From Candidatus Latescibacterota bacterium (GTDB taxonomy: Bacteria; Latescibacterota; UBA2968; UBA8231): a stretch of 64,000 nucleotides of DNA. Shown here piece by piece: positions 9,916-22,693 of the stretch. Positions within the stretch are counted from its first letter, which is position 1; every line of letters starts with the position of its first letter. The position numbers were made by a program, and so were the translations under genes. Location of the stretch: the NCBI GenBank assembly GCA_965261395.1, contig OZ253462.1, forward strand, positions 1,312,001 to 1,376,000. The letters are read 5' to 3'. The notes under the pieces were generated by a model, which was given only the letters and a program-made list of their open reading frames with translations, was not told the DNA's origin and ran no database searches.

Positions 9916-12207
9916 ATGCAATGGTCTTGCCGACATCTGCGCTGCGCCGTGCTGGCGCTCGCTGCGGCTGCTCCGCTCAATGCCGAGGAATTGCGCTTCG
10001 ACAACGCCGCCCAATGGCGCCAGTGGACCCTGCCCCTGGGGATCGTCGAACTGACGCCCCTGGGGGTCGTCCGCCCTTTGCCGGCTCGCAAAAACATCAA
10101 TGCCGCACTCGATGCCCTAGACCATGGCGGGGGCATCCGCGGCGTCGGGTCCAACCGCGCCACTGCGGCCCTGGTCTTCGACGGCGACCCTGCGACCGGC
10201 TGGCAGCCCGCCTCGGGCGACCTGGAAGAGACGGGCTGGATCGAGGTGGATCTGGGCCGCGGCGTCCCGGCCAGCCGCGTCTCCCTGGTCTTCGACGGCG
10301 CCGCACCCCCTTTCGAGATTTTCAACCTGCTGCTGTCCACAGGGGAACAGTTCGTCGACCATGCCAGAGTCCCGGTCCCCGGCACCCTGACCTACCGCAT
10401 CGCCGAGCGCTTCGGCGCAAACAGCGCCCACCGCGTCGACTTCGCCATTCCCGCCATACCCCCGACGCCGATCCAGTTCGTGCGTCTCGAAGCGCTCAAG
10501 GCCGCGCCCGATGCGCGGCTGGTCGAAATCGAAGTGGAAGCCCTGGGCGACAACCTGGTCTCGGGCTTGCGCGAGCGGGGCGGGGACGTCGAGATCATCA
10601 TCGGCACCAACCGCACAGATTTCGAAGCCGCGACGCTGACCAATGCCCTGCGGCTGGTCGACGGCCGAATCAACACCTACTGGCGCAGCGGCCGAGTCCC
10701 GCGCGCCTCCGACGATGTCTGGGCCTGGATCATCCTGGACCTGGGCGCCGTCTACTGGGTCGACCAGGTGCACCACATCGGCCATATCGATCGCGGGCGG
10801 CATTTCAATATGAACTTCCACGAGATGATGACCTCGGACGGCTCGCTGGCCGCGGACGGCTCGCTGCGCTGGACCAAGCACTTTTCCGGCGTCCTGCCGC
10901 GGACCACCCGCAGCCAGGGCATGGTTGCGCACCGCTTCGCCCCCATCCCCACGCGCTTCGTGCGCATCCTCTTCAAGACCTGGGACGCCCAGTGTACCAC
11001 CGCATCCAGCACTAGCGCGCCCGGTTGCTACTCCAGTGGCCACACTGCGGAGATCATGGTCTTCAGCGAGGGTTTTCCGCGCGAGGTGCGCTTCCATTCC
11101 CCCATCCTCGATCTCGAGGGCCGGAAGAATGTCAATGCCCTCCGCTGGGCCGCCGATGTGCCCTCCGGCACCCGGCTCGAGCTGCGCAGCCGCTCGGGCG
11201 ACGAACTGGAGCAGCTTTTCACCTTCTACGACAAGAATCTCAAAGAAGTCACCGAAAAGAAGTGGGACAAGCTCATTCCCTCTTTCCGCGGCCCCATCGA
11301 TACTACCACTGCGCCCGGCGGCGACTGGAGTCCCTGGAGCAATATCTACGCGGCCTCCGGCCAGACCTTCCTCTCGCCCTCGCTCAGGCGCTTCGTCCAG
11401 CTCGACGCGCGTCTGGTGAGCGACTCCCCCCTGCGGGCACCCTCCCTGGACTGGGTGAGCCTGGACTTCACCGATCCCATCGCCGAACGCGTCAGCGCCG
11501 AGGTCTACCCCTTCCAGGTCGAGCCGGGCACCATGGTGACCTTTTCCTACTGGCTGCGCGCCCCTGCTACTCGCGAAGGCTTTGACCGGCTGGCCATAGA
11601 GGCCTCCACGCCCCTGCGCTTTGTCGACACCCGCCTCGATGGCGCGCCCATCGAGGTCCAGGCGCGAGAGGACAGCGCCGGCTTCCGTTTGCAGTTCCCC
11701 CGCCGGGTGCAGAGCGGCGAACTGGTGGAGATGCGCTTTGAGGCCGCCGCTTTCCTGCAGGCCACGCGTTTTGACCTCTTTCTCGAAGACAGCCGGCTGG
11801 GCCCGGACGTGCGCCAGCGGGTCGAACCGGGTGACGCCAACCCACAGGTCGAAAGCAGTACCAATATCATCGAGTTGCCCCTGGACCGCGCTCTCTTCGC
11901 CCATCTCTCCGTGTACCCCAGAGTGCTCACACCCAATGGCGACGGCATAGGTGACCGCCTCTTCATCAGCCTGAACCTGATCAACGTGCTGGAGCACAGA
12001 CCGCTGAAACTGGAGCTTTTCGACCTGGCCAGCCGCCGGGTGCGCCAGATCTCGGCACGAGCGCTGGCCGGCGCCCAGGAACTGGTCTGGGACGGGCGAG
12101 ACCAATCGGGCGACCTGGTGCCGCCCGGCCACTACTTTCTACGGCTCAAAGTGGAAAGCGACGCCCGCAGCCAGAGCGTCAGCCGAATGGTGTCGATCGT
12201 CTATTGA
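9916..12207 (+). CDS. Secreted protein with discoidin-like domains and C-terminal FlgD Ig-like domain
   Basis: Signal-peptide-like MQWSCRHLRCAVLALAAAAPLNA; DGDPATGW, WIEVDLG; C-terminal LTPNGDGIGD...WDGRDQSGDLVPPGHY. The ORF is open from 9790. Confidence 0.8.
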   Translation: MQWSCRHLRCAVLALAAAAPLNAEELRFDNAAQWRQWTLPLGIVELTPLGVVRPLPARKNINAALDALDHGGGIRGVGSNRATAALVFDGDPATGWQPASGDLEETGWIEVDLGRGVPASRVSLVFDGAAPPFEIFNLLLSTGEQFVDHARVPVPGTLTYRIAERFGANSAHRVDFAIPAIPPTPIQFVRLEALKAAPDARLVEIEVEALGDNLVSGLRERGGDVEIIIGTNRTDFEAATLTNALRLVDGRINTYWRSGRVPRASDDVWAWIILDLGAVYWVDQVHHIGHIDRGRHFNMNFHEMMTSDGSLAADGSLRWTKHFSGVLPRTTRSQGMVAHRFAPIPTRFVRILFKTWDAQCTTASSTSAPGCYSSGHTAEIMVFSEGFPREVRFHSPILDLEGRKNVNALRWAADVPSGTRLELRSRSGDELEQLFTFYDKNLKEVTEKKWDKLIPSFRGPIDTTTAPGGDWSPWSNIYAASGQTFLSPSLRRFVQLDARLVSDSPLRAPSLDWVSLDFTDPIAERVSAEVYPFQVEPGTMVTFSYWLRAPATREGFDRLAIEASTPLRFVDTRLDGAPIEVQAREDSAGFRLQFPRRVQSGELVEMRFEAAAFLQATRFDLFLEDSRLGPDVRQRVEPGDANPQVESSTNIIELPLDRALFAHLSVYPRVLTPNGDGIGDRLFISLNLINVLEHRPLKLELFDLASRRVRQISARALAGAQELVWDGRDQSGDLVPPGHYFLRLKVESDARSQSVSRMVSIVY

Positions 12208-14168: not shown

Positions 14169-16340
14169 TCAGTATGCTACAGCGACGGACTGCAGGCGGA
14201 TCTCACTGCCCTTATCCGTCTCTACTTCCACCCGCGCCAGATAGATGCCAGGGCCGACCAGCTGTCCGGCTCCATCCCGACCGTCCCAGCGGGCCGTATG
14301 GCGCCCCGCGGCCTGAGCCTCTGGCTGCGCCTGCCATACCCGCCGTCCGTCCAGGGCATAGATGCCGACCTTTACCTCGGACGCCTGCTGCACCCGGAAC
14401 AAGGTATACTGGATGGATAACTGGTCGTTGACGCCGTCCCCCTGAGGGGTAAAAGCGCGGCTCCCCACCTCGAGATCCCCCAGAACTCCCCTTGCCGAGG
14501 AGGCCGACGCCACCACCACCAGCTGGTTGGAACCAAGCTCCTCGCTGACATCACCGCCTTCGACCCGCTGCAACAAGCTCTGTTCCCCGCGGTTGAAGAC
14601 CTCCCCTCCGAACTCGCCGGCCTCGTCGTAGAGCACCGTTTCCAGCCCAATGCGCAGCCGCTGATCGCCCTCCGGACTCAAGCGGCGGGGCAAAAATACA
14701 ACAAAACCGCTTTCCTCGTTCACGATGCTGTCCGGTTCCACGGCGCCCAGGGGCTCACCTATCTCCAGCCAGCCGAACTCCGCTTCCGCCGGCGTCATGA
14801 CCCGCACGACGTCGAAGCCGGTGCGATCCGCGCTGGAAAATTCAACGCCAATATCGTATACGAACGACTTTTTCTCGCCCGCCGGCACGCGCACTCGCCC
14901 GCCCTGCGGCTGGTGATCTTCCTCCAGGACCACCTCGCCCACGACCCGATCCGCCAACAGCGGCGCGATCTCGATCTGCAGCGAATCCAGCCGGGCAAAG
15001 TCAAAGAACGCATCCGTCTCCAGCTGCACCCGCAGCTGAAAGTAGCGCCCCCACGGCAGGCGCGGGTGCTGTCCCGACTCCTCGAGTGGCACCGACCAGA
15101 AACTCCAGTTTTTCAGATCCTCGACCACCGGCCCTCGGAATCCCACCGCCGGCACCGTGGTGCCGCGCGCCTCCAGTCTAGATATGGAACTGATCAAGGT
15201 CGCCCTCGGCACGGAGGAAGTCAGCCGTTCCCACTGTTTCTTGGTCACCTCCACGTGGGCTCCCAGATCGTCAAAGCCGAAGTAGGCCGTCGGAGTGCCG
15301 TCGCGACCCGTCCTGATCTCCACCTGGACGCGAACCGGACCGTCCTCGAGGGCGACCAACTGCTCCCCGTCCTTGCGCCACTTGCTCACCTCGAAGACCA
15401 CTCGCCCGAAGTTGACCTCCCGCCCCAGGTCCACTATCTGCGACTCCCAGGTCGCCGTAGGCGCAAAACCCCGGCCGTAGACCTCCATCTCCGCATAAGC
15501 CGACTGGACGACGATCGGCTGATCGTCCAAAGTGACTCCGTCGGGGACTTCCAGCAGGCGCAAATAGCGCAAATTCTGCAGCGGGAAGCGGACCTCGGTG
15601 ACGCTGTCGCGGTTGGCTTCGCGGTAGGCTAGCTGATTTTCCAGCGGGCAGCAGAAGCCCGCCCCGCGCCATCTGAAGCCCCGCTCCATCTCCTCTTCCA
15701 TTATACCTCCCTCGTCCTGGCGGGCTGTCAGGCTGAATGATTTGAGGACATAGTTGGGACGAAAGGGCTGGTCGCTGTCGGGGTTCACCCCCTCGGGAGG
15801 GTAGAACACAAAGCGCTCCACCGGCACCTGCGCGCCCATATCTATCGTGTAATAGAAAGACGACCCCGATGGTGGGCGGCTGCGCCGGTCGGCGACCTCG
15901 TCCCTGCGCTCGACGTAGGTGGCGGGATCGCCGTCGACGAAGACGAGGAGGTCGGCCTGGTACAAAATGCCATAATTCCCCAGGTTCTCGTCGCGGCTCT
16001 TCAATAGAAAGTTGCCCTGTCCCAGCCACAAACGCGGATGACCCGAGTGGTAAACCGGGTCGAAGGTGAACCTGAAGGGCTGCCAGGGTCCCAACCGAGG
16101 CAAGAGGTTCTCGTCCGGCTTGAGTTCGAAAGGCTGGAGCGCCCCGGCGGCGGTCGAGTCGTCCGTCATCAGGCTGAAATCCGCTACTTCCGTCCAGGAA
16201 ACGCCGCCCTCTCCTCCGAGCCGCCACCAATTTTCTTGGGCCGCCCCATGGCTGCAAAACCCTGCAATCCCACACAGCACGGCAAAGGCCAAAATCGCCA
16301 CTTTCGCGTTTATGCGCACCCGAACCTCAGGAATCCACAA
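14169..16340 (-). CDS. Secreted protein with C-terminal FlgD Ig-like domain (paralog of 9916-12207)
   Basis: Signal-peptide-like N-terminus, DGDPAT, NWSFWS, FTPQGDGVND...WDGRDGAGQLVGPGIY; start uncertain. Confidence 0.8.
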   Translation of the reverse strand: MWIPEVRVRINAKVAILAFAVLCGIAGFCSHGAAQENWWRLGGEGGVSWTEVADFSLMTDDSTAAGALQPFELKPDENLLPRLGPWQPFRFTFDPVYHSGHPRLWLGQGNFLLKSRDENLGNYGILYQADLLVFVDGDPATYVERRDEVADRRSRPPSGSSFYYTIDMGAQVPVERFVFYPPEGVNPDSDQPFRPNYVLKSFSLTARQDEGGIMEEEMERGFRWRGAGFCCPLENQLAYREANRDSVTEVRFPLQNLRYLRLLEVPDGVTLDDQPIVVQSAYAEMEVYGRGFAPTATWESQIVDLGREVNFGRVVFEVSKWRKDGEQLVALEDGPVRVQVEIRTGRDGTPTAYFGFDDLGAHVEVTKKQWERLTSSVPRATLISSISRLEARGTTVPAVGFRGPVVEDLKNWSFWSVPLEESGQHPRLPWGRYFQLRVQLETDAFFDFARLDSLQIEIAPLLADRVVGEVVLEEDHQPQGGRVRVPAGEKKSFVYDIGVEFSSADRTGFDVVRVMTPAEAEFGWLEIGEPLGAVEPDSIVNEESGFVVFLPRRLSPEGDQRLRIGLETVLYDEAGEFGGEVFNRGEQSLLQRVEGGDVSEELGSNQLVVVASASSARGVLGDLEVGSRAFTPQGDGVNDQLSIQYTLFRVQQASEVKVGIYALDGRRVWQAQPEAQAAGRHTARWDGRDGAGQLVGPGIYLARVEVETDKGSEIRLQSVAVAY

Positions 16341-17322
16341 GGCTTTTTAATCCACTTTCCAAGTCATCCAGCCATTGCGGCGTTTTGGGGTGAAAGGCTC
16401 CCAACACTTCCCAGAACCAGCACAAACCGGCGCCCATGGTGGCTTGTCTGACTTTAAGGTACGTCTCATCTGGTTCTATCCGCACTCCACCTGCCTCCGC
16501 ATACCCAGACCAAAACTCCTGCGGATAGTGATCGCGGCCATAAATTTCTTGAGGTTCTCGGGTAAACTCTGCTGCGACATGCAGTTGTTCATGTAGAAGG
16601 TCGCCAGTCGCTCCGTTCTCAAAATCGTAAATGCCGACTATATGGCCATCATCATCAACCAAAAGATTGTGTATAGTTGCATCTCCCCATAGAAGCCCTT
16701 GAGGACTCGGATTCGGCACGACATCAATCTTGTCCAGAAGATCTTCGATAATGGGCAACTTGGCTTGACAATCCTCTGGCAGGTCGGCTACCAAGTCCTG
16801 ATTGTAAAGGAGCTTTCTCCGTATGTCTTCTCGCCATTGGGTCACATCCTGCACGGGCAGAAGACCGTCGGATACTCTCTGTTCATTGATGGCAGCGACC
16901 ACTGAGCCAAATTCTTTGAGCAGGCGACACCGCCGATCATCGCTAGTACTGGGCATCTCGAAAAAGTCTCGTCCTTGAGTACCGGGGAGCAGACTAGAAA
17001 TCAGATAAGGATATCCGAACGCATCGGTGTCCTCGCATAATACACTGATCTCCGGGACGGGCAGAGTGGTTGTATCGCGTAACAATGCGGTAATATTGAA
17101 ATCGACCGCTAGCGAGAAGGCTTTTCGATACTTGATCTTGATCACATAGCTGCCGTCGCAACACACTGCCTTGTAGACACAGTTGGTTGGATTTGCTTCA
17201 AGTTCAGTCCATTCGATAACCGAGCCTAGCCCCTGTCTATCAAAAGCCACTGCTCCCTGCTCAGCAGTAAAGGTCGGCTTTGCCTTGGAGGCTTCTATAA
17301 ATGCTTGCTTGCTGATCGCCAA
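16327..17322 (-). CDS. APH/choline-kinase family phosphotransferase (putative cassette 4)
   Basis: YVIK, LPVPEI, WGDATIHNLLV...GIYDFE (HGD..N / DFE kinase motifs). Confidence 0.8.
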   Translation of the reverse strand: MAISKQAFIEASKAKPTFTAEQGAVAFDRQGLGSVIEWTELEANPTNCVYKAVCCDGSYVIKIKYRKAFSLAVDFNITALLRDTTTLPVPEISVLCEDTDAFGYPYLISSLLPGTQGRDFFEMPSTSDDRRCRLLKEFGSVVAAINEQRVSDGLLPVQDVTQWREDIRRKLLYNQDLVADLPEDCQAKLPIIEDLLDKIDVVPNPSPQGLLWGDATIHNLLVDDDGHIVGIYDFENGATGDLLHEQLHVAAEFTREPQEIYGRDHYPQEFWSGYAEAGGVRIEPDETYLKVRQATMGAGLCWFWEVLGAFHPKTPQWLDDLESGLKSLVDS

Positions 17323-17358
17323 ATCTACGCTCTGATATACTGTAACTTTCTTGATGTG

Positions 17359-17901
17359 CTAACTGATGTGCACAAGGATCTCATTTTTCGCGTAACGGTT
17401 GGTGCACTTGTGAACTTGCTGCAAGCAAGTTAGGTCGAGGGGCGCAGGCCCGAGCCACAAGTGCTGCTGTAAGACGTGGGACATAAAAATAAAGATGAAC
17501 AGACCTTCTTTCCCATTTATGATTTCCAACGGATCTGAGTCCCAGTGCCATCCCGTCGGAATATTCCACATATCGGGGGATTCAGGCATCGTGTGGAGCA
17601 AGGTGCCCCAGTGGGTGGGTGATTTCCAGCTAGGACCTAGGAGCTGGGTGATCGCATATGTGATCTTCTGGTCGCCAATATTCCAAAGGTCTCGGTTCGC
17701 TTGCAGTATCTTGATGAGTCCTTTTGTCGGGCGATTCCAGGTTGAGGAATCTTCGCGATCGAAGCCGTATCTCTGCTCAAGTATTTCCCATATGTACGTC
17801 ATCACGCGGTGCGTAAGTGTGCGATCAAAAGCCGATTCGAGGCGGACGTACCCGTTCAGATGGAAGCGTTCAATGTCCTCTTGAGAGAGAATTTGATTCA
17901 T
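17359..17901 (-). pseudogene. 3'-truncated PhyH family dioxygenase (putative cassette 3)
   Basis: LSQEDIERFHLNGYVRL, GWHWD (HxD motif); homology stops near 17472 where the frame runs into the attC-like site, so the distal His motif is absent. Confidence 0.75.
17390..17475 (-). repeat. attC-like site 3 (inverse core damaged)
   Basis: gtcttac-agca-gcacttgtg...aacttgcttgcagcaagtt-cacaagtgc-accaacc-GTTACGC; 9-bp stem plus the shared internal hairpin. Confidence 0.65.
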
Positions 17902-17931
17902 CGATGAAGTCACATTTCCTTGGGTATTTTC

Positions 17932-18021
17932 GGCTAACGTCTTCACGATTTGCGAACCCGCGCAGCGGGTTGGCGTAGCCCAAGGCGCGTATGCGCCGCA
18001 GCGCAAAACGCTGTGTTAGAT
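17932..18021 (-). repeat. attC-like site 2
   Basis: ATCTAAC-acag-cgttttgcg...aacccgctgcgcgggtt-cgcaaatcg-tgaagac-GTTAGCC; 90 bp, starting 35 bp after a stop codon. Confidence 0.8.
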
Positions 18022-18344
18022 GAAGTGAAGTCTTCATCCTTATATCACAAAATTATTAGCCTATTGCGTAATCACCATTTGATACCAAATCAAGTTGAGG
18101 CATTCTGTCTACTATCAGAGTTTGAGTTATCATATACTCCAACGCTTCAGAGTCACTATTGAAATATTCACTTTCTTTCTCCTGAACGATATCTCCAATA
18201 TCGTCATATATCCAGTGAAAAAAGCCATCGGTTAATTCCACTTTTTTACCTTCAAAAAACAGACATACATTAACTTGCCTCTGATTGGAACGGCCTGTTA
18301 TTTGAGGGAGAAAGCTGATTACAGCACTAATGCGATGGCCTTTA

Positions 18345-19276
18345 GAAGCCGTCTGAAAACTATATTTTTTCTATTTGATCCGTTTGAGCAGCAAGTGGAT
18401 CATAGCAATCTGGATCAAGGCTTCGCTATGGTGGGTCAACACCTCATAATCTCGGGCATGTCGGCGAAAATTCATCAACCACGCAAACGTGCGCTCGACG
18501 ACCCAACGGCGTGGTAACACCTCAAAGCCGGGGCCTTGTTTGGCGACGACTTCCAAGTCTATTTTGTGCGTCTTTTTTACGTTAGCCACCCACGTTCGGA
18601 TCGGATCGCCTCGATAGCCGCCATCGCCCCACAGTTTGCGTAACCGGGCTACGCCGGAGGCCCCCAAGCGGGTCAACACCTGCTTGAGGCCGTCCCGATC
18701 CTCTACATCGGCGGCGGTGACCACCACCTGTCTAAGCAAGCCCGAGGTGTCGACCAACAGATGACGCTTGCGCCCCTTGACCTTTTTTCCGGCGTCATAA
18801 CCGGTTGTTTTACCATGGGTTGCCGTCTTGATCGTCTGACTATCGACTACGCCAGCCGACGGCGTTGGAGCCCGTCCGTTGAGGCGGCGTTCCCGCTGGG
18901 TGAGTCGATCCAATACCTGCGGCCAGACCCCTTGTAGACTCCAGCGACGAAAGTAATCATACACCGTTTTCCACGGTCCAAAACAAGAAGGCAACAAAGC
19001 CCAAGGACAACCGGTCTTGGTCAGATACAAAAGGCCGTTGACGATCTGGCGTCGATCCCGCGGTGGCCGACCCGGACCGTTCGGCTGCCATGTCGAAGCC
19101 GGCAGCAACGGTTCGATCCGACGCCATTGCACATCGGTTACATCGGTGGCATATTGCCTACTAGGCGTACTCATCATACGAGCCTTTCTGTTCAGATTTT
19201 GTCGCGAAACCTGAATATGGCTCGATGAGTACGCCGATTCAAATACCGGCTACAGCAAGGGTTTTCAGACGGCTTC
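18345..19276 (-). mobile_element. IS5 family element (IS1031-like), 932 bp
   Basis: IRs gaagccgtctgaaaac / gttttcagacggcttc; TTA duplication at 18342-18344 and 19277-19279. Confidence 0.95.
18371..19177 (-). CDS. IS5 family transposase
   Basis: Same motifs as 6736-7539; protein identical to 56708-57514. Confidence 0.95.
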   Translation of the reverse strand: MMSTPSRQYATDVTDVQWRRIEPLLPASTWQPNGPGRPPRDRRQIVNGLLYLTKTGCPWALLPSCFGPWKTVYDYFRRWSLQGVWPQVLDRLTQRERRLNGRAPTPSAGVVDSQTIKTATHGKTTGYDAGKKVKGRKRHLLVDTSGLLRQVVVTAADVEDRDGLKQVLTRLGASGVARLRKLWGDGGYRGDPIRTWVANVKKTHKIDLEVVAKQGPGFEVLPRRWVVERTFAWLMNFRRHARDYEVLTHHSEALIQIAMIHLLLKRIK

Positions 19277-19386
19277 TTAGCAGTGGTGTTGTATACCTCC
19301 ACATATCCGACTCCTTTTTGGCCTCTTTCTGATGCTCGTTCCCATTCATAATTCATTGTATTTTCTCCATATTTACGGAATTGCCA

Positions 19387-20043
19387 TTATTTGGTCATAG
19401 AAGACTCTGTATTCGACTGGATCATTTCGGCTATTGTAGCCCATTCTTGATATAGTTCGGTTAAGTTTAACCTTTCTAACGTTTCATCTTTTTTATATTT
19501 ATGATGCTCGTCAGGATCACCAAATGTCATCTTACTTAGGTCCTTCTCAAAAAAATCGAATGCAATTTTCTCTAGTTGGTGCGCCATATCGATAAAGTCT
19601 GACCGAATGATACGACCAATCTCAGGAAATAGATCGGCAGGGGCTGGCCCGATAAGCATAGATAGGTTTAGCGTATAGTCTTGTATAAAATTGAGTTCAC
19701 GGCTTACAGGCTTTGTTAGCCACGCAGAATAGGTCGCAGCCACTTCTCTATGCTGAATATGCCAAGAGTAAAATTCCTCAGGACTCATGAAGAACTGTGG
19801 CGTTCGGGCAAGTTCTGATTCAGACTCCTGATACTCCAACGACCTCATATGTCTCATTGGAGCAACCAGCTTAAAAATTGCCTCATGGGCTTCGATTCGC
19901 CGATCCAGCACCTTTTCCCGTAGCCGAAGTTGCAACTCCTTCTCTTTTAATCTTGAATTTGCAAAGAAGGTGAACATTGAGCCCAACAAAACTCCTCCAA
20001 GGGCGAATACGGCGGTTATATTCTTCGCTAGAAGTTCATACAT
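19387..20043 (-). CDS. Hypothetical protein with N-terminal transmembrane helix (putative cassette 2)
   Basis: AT-rich 218-aa ORF; ITAVFALGGVLLGSMFTFF followed by a charged helix. Confidence 0.75.
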   Translation of the reverse strand: MYELLAKNITAVFALGGVLLGSMFTFFANSRLKEKELQLRLREKVLDRRIEAHEAIFKLVAPMRHMRSLEYQESESELARTPQFFMSPEEFYSWHIQHREVAATYSAWLTKPVSRELNFIQDYTLNLSMLIGPAPADLFPEIGRIIRSDFIDMAHQLEKIAFDFFEKDLSKMTFGDPDEHHKYKKDETLERLNLTELYQEWATIAEMIQSNTESSMTK

Positions 20044-20120
20044 AACCCATAAACCTGTTCGTTCATAGAATGGTGTTCTTATGGCAATTTATCTGTGTAG
20101 ATCTTTATTTTTTTTATTTC

Positions 20121-20205
20121 ATCTAACGGGCTGCCCGCTCACGAACTCGCGTAGCGAGTTGGGCGGAGGCCCGAATGGGCTGTAGCCGTGGGCGGGTTGT
20201 TAGAG
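20121..20205 (-). repeat. attC-like site 1
   Basis: CTCTAAC-aa-cccgcccacg...aactcgctacgcgagtt-cgtgagcggg-cagccc-GTTAGAT; 85-bp GC-rich island in AT-rich DNA, 37 bp after a stop codon. Confidence 0.8.
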
Positions 20206-20241: not shown

Positions 20242-22257
20242 TCATATCCCTAGCTTATGAAAGAAAATTTGATTACGCATTTTTGCATCTTTTAGCACTT
20301 TATCCCAACTAATCACTTCTATATAGAGCTTTGTATTTTCGTGCCAATTAAACCAGCCTAAACGATCGGGCATAGGTTTGAAATCCTTTTCTCGCCTAAG
20401 CCATTCTTCAACCTTAGGAGTTAAATCACAAACAACATATCCATAGAATGGGGTATTTTCCTCGACCAGCATTTTACGACCTTCAGGTGTCTTATATTTC
20501 CCATCGCGAATATTGTTAACGTAGCGAATGACTTGCTGGACCGGATCTTCTTTTGAAGATGGATTTACAAAATCATCTCTCTCCGGTTTTTTAAATTCAA
20601 AAATTGTTACAGGATTACTTGCTTCATTATCTCCACGGAAGAGGATACGCTTATTATAAACAAGAAGGTCAGGACGCTCGGAACCTTTGCCATTAAGCGG
20701 CAGATCGGATGATACATAGTTCGTGAAGTTCAGGCGTTCATCTATGATCCAGAGATTGTGATCTTCGAATGAAGTGACATCTGTGTCACCTTTTCGCGGA
20801 AAAATAACATCATGAACTATGCCCTCAGATGAATATTCCCCAGATTCGTCTACCTGAAGGCTTTTTCCAAAGATGTCTAGGATATTACGTCGAAGTGCAA
20901 TGTAGTGGATCAAGTCATTCTTGCTATTTCCTGATATTTTGCTGACGATTTCTGCGACATCTTTCTGTCGAGCTTCTAGATTTCCTTCCTTGTTTAGGAG
21001 TTGCGTGACATCTTTCTTCAGTTGCGTCTCTTGTCTGAATTTTTCTTGGTGTAAACGACTTTCAATCTCTTCGTTCGATGGATTGTAGGGCATCTTAGCC
21101 AAGTCTATAGCCTCAAGTATGTCCTTATGCCACGGCGCTTCTTCTTCCACATATGCCTGGACACTTACCCTCTTCTTTTCTTGACGAATAGCAACGTCTG
21201 AACCAACCGCATTCTTGGCGATTTCAGCAGATCTCGCTTCAATCTCGATCTGTGATATACCGAATTGAAGATCCCTGTCCATTTGGAATTCGAAGCTGCC
21301 ACGCTCTAGCGATACATTATTGTCTAAGTAAGAGCTGAATACGTAGGCTTTTACAATATAATTTCTGTCACGATTGACTTCTCCATTGCCATTATTATCG
21401 TAAAAATCTTCGCTGAACTCTGGTATGTATTTGTCTATAACCGATCCAGACACCTCTCTCTTATGTGCGACGAGGCTAATTCTGCTTCTCTGATTCCTTG
21501 GATAATACAATTTAAAAACTCTAACGATAAACTCTTCTATCGTTTCGTCATTATTACTGCTTTGCAGTGTGAAGGTGCTTTCTGATACTGGAACTTCTTC
21601 AATGACAGACGACAATTCGTTATTGAAGAAATCATTAAGTCGAATTGAGCCTGACCTGTCTTCCTCAGACAATATCACCTCAGGACAGATATAGTCTTGA
21701 GTGATAAAGTATGGGAGAAGTTTCTCGACGATATTTCTGGCTATCGTATTGAGTCTTTTGTCAATTGATCTTCCTTTTTTGAGATTTTTCAGATGAATGA
21801 TAGTTCGTGATGCTTTATCTGAGGAGTCTGATATTTTTTCATTAATGATAATATCAGTATCCTTACCCATGTCGAATGCGCGATGCTTGTAAATGCCATT
21901 GTCTTGGTATACGCTTTCCACATGGAGGTCATCAAAATATTTCAGGCAAGTAAATCGACCAAACCCTTTACCACCATCCTCGATTCTAAGGTCTGTATAT
22001 AATGTATCAAATGACCATCGATTTTCGTCTGTGAAGCCGATGCCATTATCGACTATTTCAAAACTACGGACATCTGACAAAGAACCATCCATTTCAAGCT
22101 GCTCAGACCGGAGAACTTTTATTTCAATTTTTCCATCTTGGCCGCCGCGGCTTTCAATTGCCTGTATTGCATTGACAACAACCTCAACAATCGATGTATA
22201 AACAGTCGTATTCGCTCTGATATTTTCAACCGCTCTCTTGATATTTACTTTGCTCAT
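20242..22257 (-). CDS. GHKL (HATPase_c) ATPase fused to a C-terminal PD-(D/E)XK-like nuclease (putative cassette 1)
   Basis: EVVVNAIQA, DNGIGF, GGKGFGRF; C-terminal RPDLL...IFEFKKP...PVQQVIRY. Confidence 0.8.
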   Translation of the reverse strand: MSKVNIKRAVENIRANTTVYTSIVEVVVNAIQAIESRGGQDGKIEIKVLRSEQLEMDGSLSDVRSFEIVDNGIGFTDENRWSFDTLYTDLRIEDGGKGFGRFTCLKYFDDLHVESVYQDNGIYKHRAFDMGKDTDIIINEKISDSSDKASRTIIHLKNLKKGRSIDKRLNTIARNIVEKLLPYFITQDYICPEVILSEEDRSGSIRLNDFFNNELSSVIEEVPVSESTFTLQSSNNDETIEEFIVRVFKLYYPRNQRSRISLVAHKREVSGSVIDKYIPEFSEDFYDNNGNGEVNRDRNYIVKAYVFSSYLDNNVSLERGSFEFQMDRDLQFGISQIEIEARSAEIAKNAVGSDVAIRQEKKRVSVQAYVEEEAPWHKDILEAIDLAKMPYNPSNEEIESRLHQEKFRQETQLKKDVTQLLNKEGNLEARQKDVAEIVSKISGNSKNDLIHYIALRRNILDIFGKSLQVDESGEYSSEGIVHDVIFPRKGDTDVTSFEDHNLWIIDERLNFTNYVSSDLPLNGKGSERPDLLVYNKRILFRGDNEASNPVTIFEFKKPERDDFVNPSSKEDPVQQVIRYVNNIRDGKYKTPEGRKMLVEENTPFYGYVVCDLTPKVEEWLRREKDFKPMPDRLGWFNWHENTKLYIEVISWDKVLKDAKMRNQIFFHKLGI

Positions 22258-22353: not shown

Positions 22354-22419
22354 CTCTAACTACTGTATTCCCGACGTACGTCGTCTAACTCACTTAAAGT
22401 AAGGGGTTAGACGACGTAC
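22354..22419 (-). promoter_or_regulatory. attI-like recombination site
   Basis: Minus strand cgggaatacagtaG|TTAGAGG with no attC body, next to a perfect 14-bp IR gtacgtcgtctaac (22376-22389) / gttagacgacgtac (22406-22419) that holds two more GTTAGAC cores. Confidence 0.55.
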
Positions 22420-22616: not shown

Positions 22617-22693
22617 TGGTGGGCGATACTAGACTTGAACTAGTGACCTCCTGCATGTCAAGCAGGCGCTCTAGCCAGCTGAGCTAATCGCCC
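22617..22693 (-). tRNA. tRNA-Val(GAC)
   Basis: gggcgat acceptor stem, anticodon arm cctgc-ttGACat-gcagg, T-loop ttcaagt, encoded CCA. Confidence 0.97.

Follow-up and report, generated by a model that had tools for sequence, protein, structure and literature searches.

Integron integrases (IntI) are defined, and searched for, by an additional domain (I2) that is held to have enabled recombination of folded single strands. In the reverse integrons of Treponema, the integrase gene reads in the same direction as the array, with attI at its 3' end, and the integrase likewise carries the additional domain. As described in the available text of Cury 2016, IntegronFinder calls an IntI only when this domain is present. 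Several other described systems come close to the one reported here. According to the accessible part of Nivina 2016, the Vibrio cholerae repeats (VCRs) of sedentary chromosomal integrons are 85- to 100-nt sites with a lineage-conserved sequence and a branched, variable terminal structure, and they have two-sided spacers, three extrahelical bases and a domain-bearing IntI. A group of "integron-like" simple tyrosine recombinases includes insertion-less members, which are not linked to cassette arrays or attI in the available portion of Smyshlyaev 2021.

Here we describe a site class found in a stretch of 64,000 nucleotides (the window) from the chromosome of a Candidatus Latescibacterota bacterium with a 6.5-Mb genome (contig OZ253462.1, positions 1,312,001 to 1,376,000). 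Three sites in the window, w1, w2 and w3, are probably attC-type sites of a distinct class that part the cassettes of a cluster of attC sites lacking integron integrases (CALIN), and their cognate integrase, found in relatives, would be one without I2. The class resembles canonical attC sites and their IntI in its TAAC/GTTA cores, the boundary at G|TT, the imperfect palindromic hairpin and a bottom strand that is more stable than the top strand; about half of the parsed sites also have a single-base bulge on the R''-L'' arm, though not at the canonical positions. As in canonical integrons, one sense open reading frame (ORF) lies upstream of each site, and the arrays run away from a divergent integrase gene and attI. 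Unlike canonical attC sites, the class has a one-sided spacer, a first paired segment of 2 bp instead of about 5, and a junction at a fixed distance from R'; unlike IntI, the integrase found beside its arrays has no additional domain and falls short of the TIGR02249 cut-off.

The class sites also resemble VCRs in length, lineage-conserved sequence and branched end, and differ from them, by their description only, in integrase, spacer and extrahelical bases. The array in the window is like a CALIN, with three sites within 4 kb in a genome without an integrase; unlike the usual CALIN, it was defined by a class-specific model. The integrase fits the insertion-less members described by Smyshlyaev 2021, from which, as described there, it differs in its linkage to arrays and attI. 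In the full-text literature, subscription journals being outside coverage, we found no account of such a domain-less integrase-array system.

Anatomy and covariation of the sites

The three sites are given below in window coordinates. They are read on the minus strand, which is the gene-sense strand, and the E values were obtained with the R1 covariance model (see below) using the whole 6.5-Mb genome as the search space.

17390..17475, minus strand: w1, putative attC-type site, last in the array; R'' GTCTTAC (degenerate), R' GTTACGC; internal hairpin 17413-17431; E 1.3e-11
17932..18021, minus strand: w2, putative attC-type site; R'' ATCTAAC, R' GTTAGCC; internal hairpin 17955-17971; E 6.4e-18
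20121..20205, minus strand: w3, putative attC-type site; R'' CTCTAAC, R' GTTAGAT; internal hairpin 20144-20160; E 9.0e-14

All three are imperfect palindromes of about 85 to 90 nt and share one arrangement: an inverse core with a terminal TAAC (TTAC in w1), 12 to 13 nt, a GC-rich hairpin, a short linker, a second hairpin with an AAC..GTT base, 16 nt, and a GTTRRRY-like core. A first-pass annotation of this DNA had described a 12- to 13-nt arm, an internal hairpin and 16 nt to the GTT core in each site, and all of these were found on the minus strand. The arm 3' of the inverse core measured 13, 13 and 12 nt, the gap between hairpin and GTT core was 16 nt in every site, and the hairpin stems had 7 to 8 bp. 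Paired cores of the form RYYYAAC / GTTRRRY are present in w2 and w3, and w1 departs from this form at its R'' GTCTTAC. When folded as single-stranded DNA, the sites were more stable than their shuffles (z from -2.65 to -3.92). In these folds, an asymmetric internal loop separated the R box from a stem of about 10 bp, which led into a three-way junction. In the bottom-strand fold of w2, the R box was followed by 4 bulged nt on the R' arm and, after 2 bp, by one on the R'' arm, before the L stem and the three-way junction; w3 showed a 4-nt R'-arm bulge and an 11-bp stem with no single-base bulge. An Rfam scan of the window gave only the tRNA, with no family covering w1 to w3.

The R1 model was built from nine class sites of the window genome. 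RNAalifold, run on a MAFFT alignment, recovered the two internal hairpins only, since the arms of different sites do not align in register, and the outer helices were set by hand. With this model, 16 sites were found in the window genome at E <= 0.0012, in three arrays and as singletons. Of the 76 genomes searched from the bacterial family, 40 contained R1 sites. Covariation was examined in 63 aligned sites, the alignment being fitted to the structure of the model. In the four helices, 90.3% of the cells were paired, against 74.4% in shuffles, and both-sided changes occurred in 18 of 25 pairs. Covariation, which the first-pass annotation had named as a check on its proposal, was indeed found: the score was 0.357, compared with 0.112 for shuffled alignments (none of 500 as high) and 0.035 to 0.077 with slid partners. 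Both-sided changes affected 6 of 7 pairs in the variable L stem and 5 of 5 and 5 of 7 pairs in the two internal hairpins. Of the 63 sites, 57 to 59 retained the four TAAC/GTTA pairs, and the AAC/GTT base of the junction hairpin was nearly invariant. Thus, the class folds as an imperfect hairpin in which pairing, rather than sequence, is conserved.

Within each array all sites had the same orientation. The longest ORF lay on the sense strand of the sites in 45 of 49 inter-site intervals, with a median unit of 904 bp. The arrays of class sites are cassette arrays.

Integrases beside the arrays

In six related genomes of four genera (G014, G015, G016, G011, G012 and G010), a divergent integrase gene has its 5' end 0.65 to 1.4 kb from the start of an array of class sites. 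The arrays reach up to 21 sites within 20 kb, and all 53 sites in these 20-kb stretches point away from the integrase gene and attI; this count leaves out a second locus of G016 (L088). The latter locus has a truncated second integrase copy (residues 34-223) at positions 10058-10624, at the far end of a six-site array.

About 230 bp upstream of the integrase start were conserved in the six loci, and the conservation ended abruptly at ..CAG|TTA (GAT in G012). Past that junction each locus differed, opening with the consensus cassette start that is found after every R' core. Because the conservation stops so sharply and is followed by locus-specific cassette starts, the region ending in G|TTA is, as judged from these alignments, an attI-like region with the signature of a crossover point.

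The same points separate natural variants of one locus. Assembled contigs of public metagenome runs were aligned to the locus of G011 (L083). Three runs belonging to two other studies contain a 1.5-kb contig that leads from the integrase through attI directly into a homologue of the third cassette of the reference strain, at depths of 13.4, 7.3 and 6.5. Two of these runs also have a 1-kb contig in which the end of cassette 2 leads into the start of cassette 1, the two parts sharing only 4 letters; the match of this contig starts precisely at the G of R' in the first attC. The three breakpoints, L083 1595|1596, 2627|2628 and 3045|3046, coincide with predicted G|TT points, one in attI and two in R' cores. 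The contigs show that the joined forms exist, their frequency and any free circle being left aside. Other candidate joints (2587>5451, 2619>5411, 2630>4154, 3041>5412, 2602>7295 and 23-251) were set aside, as they had 20 to 34 matching letters on one side and lay in attC repeats or a repeated flank.

The integrase gene is intact in G014, G011 and G016, has one in-frame stop in G015, and shows frame changes in G012 and G010. The G014 integrase, 301 amino acids long, matched TIGR02249 with 239.6 bits in two pieces (cut-off, 265), XerA with 207 bits and XerC/D with about 172 bits. Its identity with a canonical IntI from the family was 37%, and where the additional domain would lie the alignment had gaps of 29 and 9 residues. 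In the alignment, insertions of 31 and 10 columns were common to four canonical IntIs and missing from the array-linked integrases. The best solved relative was VchIntIA (2a3v), in which about 42 residues between chain positions 175 and 235 had no counterpart. The catalytic residues R, K, H-x-x-R, H and Y are kept in the integrases of G014, G011 and G016. Judged by sequence, the array-linked integrase is an IntI-like tyrosine recombinase without the additional domain. The first-pass annotation had suggested a distinct class of sites or recombinase, and the arrays do adjoin such an enzyme. Standard practice would not call it an IntI, because the additional domain is required according to the available texts of Cury 2016 and Ghaly 2022.

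A tree was built from 37 rows, with five canonical IntIs, two Xer proteins as the outgroup and 24 sampled homologues; the IntIs of L014 to L016 gave no ORF by the filter and were left out. The four array-linked integrases formed a clade with a support of 100 within a group of the sampled homologues, and this group was sister to the five canonical IntIs with a support of 99, on thin sampling and with long outgroup branches. Four of the canonical IntIs (L017, L018, L019 and L020) had an N-terminal extension of about 100 residues, and the fifth (L013) had none.

We considered whether w1 to w3 and their relatives might be ordinary CALIN attC sites that are served in trans by a canonical IntI, with the domain-less integrase unrelated to the cassettes. 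A canonical IntI above the TIGR02249 cut-off is indeed present in 9 of the 76 family genomes; one of these, G006, has at least 44 class sites, and the single-base bulges of the class lie mainly on the canonical arm (see below). However, no class site was found in five 20-kb stretches around the canonical IntI genes of G006, G007 and G065, and the exact hairpin motif was not found near canonical IntI genes. Six attC sites that do lie beside canonical IntI genes of the family, folded in the same way as the class sites, had near-symmetric spacers, with loops of 4/2, 3/3, 3/2, 2/1, 2/1 and 3/2 followed by 5 to 6 bp and two single-base bulges on the R'' arm. Six class arrays, in contrast, begin at an attI-like junction beside the domain-less integrase, and the combination of integrase, attI and array recurs in Paenibacillus. 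Service in trans by a canonical IntI is thus unlikely.

Beyond the six genomes, R1 matched arrays that adjoin homologous, putatively domain-less integrases (45 to 57% identity) at 16 loci of Paenibacillus and two more of Latescibacterota:

Paenibacillus loci with R1 arrays: L116, L117, L120-L123, L127-L131, L135, L137, L138, L144, L167
Further Latescibacterota loci with R1 arrays: L097, L115

All 77 of these matches lie downstream of the integrase gene and are co-directional with it. In nine Paenibacillus loci, a conserved region past the stop codon of the integrase gene ends at ..GATG|TTA and is followed by divergent cassette starts. The integrases of Paenibacillus and of this second Latescibacterota lineage are thus arranged like those of the Treponema reverse integrons, with attI at the 3' end of the integrase gene; the six G014-type loci, unlike those of Treponema, have a divergent rather than an inverted layout. 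The sites in the Paenibacillus, L097 and L115 arrays are longer (104 to 190 nt) and retain arms of 12 nt versus 15 nt. A fragment of 115 amino acids from a second, G007-like integrase lineage lies at positions 17243-17590 of locus L170 (G006:C2), upstream of a class array and co-directional with it. The same contig carries at least 14 class sites between 5.2 and 35.6 kb.

There is an even chance, in our judgement, that these elements form a second integron lineage without I2, made up of a recombinase sister to IntI, its own attI and a matching attC class, and spanning at least Latescibacterota and Paenibacillus. If this is true, a whole integron lineage escapes current censuses or is counted there among the integrase-less CALINs. 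Integron-type gene capture may then also occur in Gram-positive bacteria such as Paenibacillus, in a phylum from which integrons are reported to be almost absent; the available text on IntegronFinder 2.0 gives one complete integron and a few CALINs for Firmicutes. Strand and site recognition would also be achievable by other structural marks, the I2 helix being no prerequisite for the use of a folded attC. The system would offer an experimental handle on the origin of single-strand recombination from Xer-like enzymes.

Asymmetry, strand and mode of recombination

To describe the arms of the class, 75 sites were taken, of which 13 without AAC/GTT at the expected ends (w1 among them) were dropped. 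The remaining 62 were folded with DNA parameters, the AAC/GTT pairs being enforced; the junction could be parsed in 59 sites and the bottom-strand fold in 54. Of the 62 sites, 37 had 16 nt and 16 had 15 nt between hairpin and R'. Among the 59, 33 sites had an R' arm of 16 nt and nine had one of 15 nt; the R'' arm was 13 nt long in 29 sites and 12 nt long in nine. The R' arm was longer by 2 to 4 nt in 45 sites; the difference was 0 in nine, +1 in three, +6 in one and -6 in one.

In 38 of the 54 parsed folds, the first loop past the R box was a bulge on the R'-L' arm only, with no unpaired base on the other arm; its size was 4 nt in 29 sites, 3 nt in seven, and 5 nt and 6 nt in one each. The bulge consisted mostly of pyrimidines in the 26 sites with the full pattern, and unpaired bases were commoner on the R' arm in 52 of the 54 sites. 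After 2 bp, a single-base bulge followed on the R''-L'' arm in 29 sites, compared with four on the other arm, and some sites had a second one 4 bp further on. The positions of these single-base bulges differ from the canonical ones. For canonical sites, the available text of Nivina 2016 gives a spacer of 5 to 6 nt per arm, and in the accessible part of the IntegronFinder seed alignment almost every row gives the 5' spacer 5 letters, and the 3' spacer has 4 to 7. A two-sided unpaired spacer of about 5 to 6 nt per arm is not a feature of the class. Thus, the single-base bulges of the class, where present, lie mainly on the canonical arm; what the class is without is the R''-side half of the spacer, and the loss of this half accounts for the longer R' arm. 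The site nearest the integrase in one G016 locus (L082:17241-17336) is a perfect palindrome through the spacer, with 17 continuous bp, -41 kcal/mol and no bulge on either arm.

The bottom strand, antisense to the genes, was more stable than the top strand in 56 of the 62 sites, equally stable in two and less stable in four, with a mean difference of -2.39 kcal/mol. Canonical attC bottom strands are likewise more stable, by 2.12 kcal/mol according to the accessible part of Nivina 2016. The first-pass annotation had placed the extra bases on the R' side and had proposed that strand selectivity might be altered. The first claim stands as far as the length of the R' arm is concerned; a move of the extrahelical bases, however, is unsupported, as the single-base bulges remain mainly on the R''-L'' arm. 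As to the second, recombination on the top, gene-sense strand would be suggested by the longer R' arm and by an integrase without the I2 helix, the reader of extrahelical bases in IntI, since the rules of strand choice could then differ. Against it stand the stability of the bottom strand, the side of the single-base bulges, the polarity of all 53 sites, which is that of ordinary bottom-strand recombination, and the sense ORFs in 45 of 49 cassettes. Because fold stability, bulge side, attI polarity and ORF orientation all fit the bottom strand, a change of strand is unsupported, and we regard it as distinctly unlikely.

A third explanation is that recombination takes place on double-stranded DNA in the manner of Xer/dif, the hairpins being a by-product of paired binding sites. 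This would suit an integrase that lacks the domain tied to single-strand recombination and whose next-best family matches are Xer recombinases. However, the covariation extends beyond the boxes through the variable L stem and both internal hairpins, and, by eye, no inverted core with a 6- to 8-bp spacer was seen at R'. A double-strand mode is therefore very unlikely.

For the attC-type reading, the following model is proposed. On the bottom strand, a site would open with the R box (..TAAC paired to GTTA..). Next would come about 4 unpaired nt, rich in pyrimidines and confined to the R'-L' arm. Beyond 2 bp, the R''-L'' arm would often carry one or two single-base bulges, and a stem of about 9 bp would lead to a three-way junction. 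At the junction, the AAC..GTT hairpin would stack directly on L', 15 to 16 nt from the crossover point. The folded bottom strand would recombine at the G|TT of R' with attI or another site, as in integrons, and cassettes would be inserted, excised and shuffled. The near-fixed distance between R' and the junction hairpin, together with the nearly invariant AAC/GTT base, suggests that the hairpin and its distance are read by a protein. The one-sided bulge and the conserved hairpin are possibly the structural marks that replace recognition by I2. The anatomy of the sites, their covariation, the layout of arrays and attI, the missing domain and the cassette differences between strains that break at G|TT were observed directly. 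The strand used, the neighbouring integrase as the catalyst and the roles of the bulge and the hairpin are what we infer.

Several points weigh against the attC-type reading with a domain-less cognate integrase. The additional domain is held necessary for attC recombination in the available texts of Cury 2016 and Ghaly 2022, and it is by their position that the neighbouring integrases are assigned to the class sites. In three of the six loci, the integrase gene is interrupted by a stop or a frameshift, which may reflect long-read assembly errors or real decay. The array of L088 points towards its truncated integrase copy, not away from it. In G006, which has its canonical IntI elsewhere than its class sites, the sole relative of the domain-less integrase is a truncated fragment of 115 amino acids, and in G009 the integrase is present with no site at E <= 0.001, in a genome that is 84% complete and in 150 contigs. 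The alignment fitted to the model favours the pairing counts, although the margin is large, and the cassette differences come from assembled contigs, not raw reads. Finally, the array in the window may be inactive, a fossil, because the genome has no integrase, the R'' of w1 is degenerate and one cassette contains an insertion sequence (IS).

That the sites are repeats of the repetitive extragenic palindromic (REP) type or terminators with no role in recombination would agree with GC-rich hairpins downstream of ORFs and a window genome without an integrase, and is hardly credible in view of the TAAC/GTTA cores, the arrays, their start at an attI junction and strain differences that break exactly at G|TT.

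The window locus

The array in the window lies beside a tRNA-Val gene, and the genes share one strand with the sites. The order is tRNA-Val, a 671-amino-acid ORF, w3, a 218-amino-acid ORF and the IS, w2, a 142-amino-acid ORF, w1 and an APH-family ORF:

22617..22693, minus strand: tRNA-Val (GAC), conserved flank of the array (Rfam scan, genus comparison)
22354..22419, minus strand: array start; 14-bp perfect palindrome with a TAAC end and a GTTA beginning, at 22419-22406 and 22389-22376 (by eye)
20242..22257, minus strand: 671-amino-acid ORF upstream of w3, weak HATPase_c match
19387..20043, minus strand: 218-amino-acid cassette ORF between w3 and w2, no Pfam family
18341..19280, minus strand: IS of the IS4/IS5 family, about 940 bp, inside the w3-w2 cassette, with terminal inverted repeats; transposase 18371-19177
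17479..17904, minus strand: 142-amino-acid cassette ORF between w2 and w1, no Pfam family
16327..17322, minus strand: APH-family phosphotransferase ORF downstream of w1 (family match)

The window genome has no integron integrase: its best TIGR02249 match reached 82 bits, and its only relatives of the array-linked integrase are Xer-like proteins. The array is thus probably an integrase-less cassette array (CALIN) beside tRNA-Val. Between the tRNA gene and the 671-amino-acid ORF, the palindrome at the array start is followed by a stretch resembling an attC 3' arm and by GTTAGAG at 22360-22354. The R1 model gave no match at 22354..22419; the palindrome may be a remnant attI or a half site that marks where the array begins. 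The 671-amino-acid ORF is probably the first cassette.

Between the same flanks, other species of the genus carry different cassettes. Three further species of the genus have the module with the 142-amino-acid ORF, in a different genomic setting. The APH-family module (16307-17399) recurs at 97 to 98% identity in at least nine species of the genus; its right end lies inside the R' of w1, and it has no attC at its left end.

Another class site, at G000:C1:2758870-2758962, has its 5' side cut by what appears to be the terminal repeat of the same IS as that in the w3-w2 cassette. The IS has eight more copies in the genome at 100% identity and many copies in the genus at 66 to 92%. It may prefer TTAG-like targets in or near class sites.

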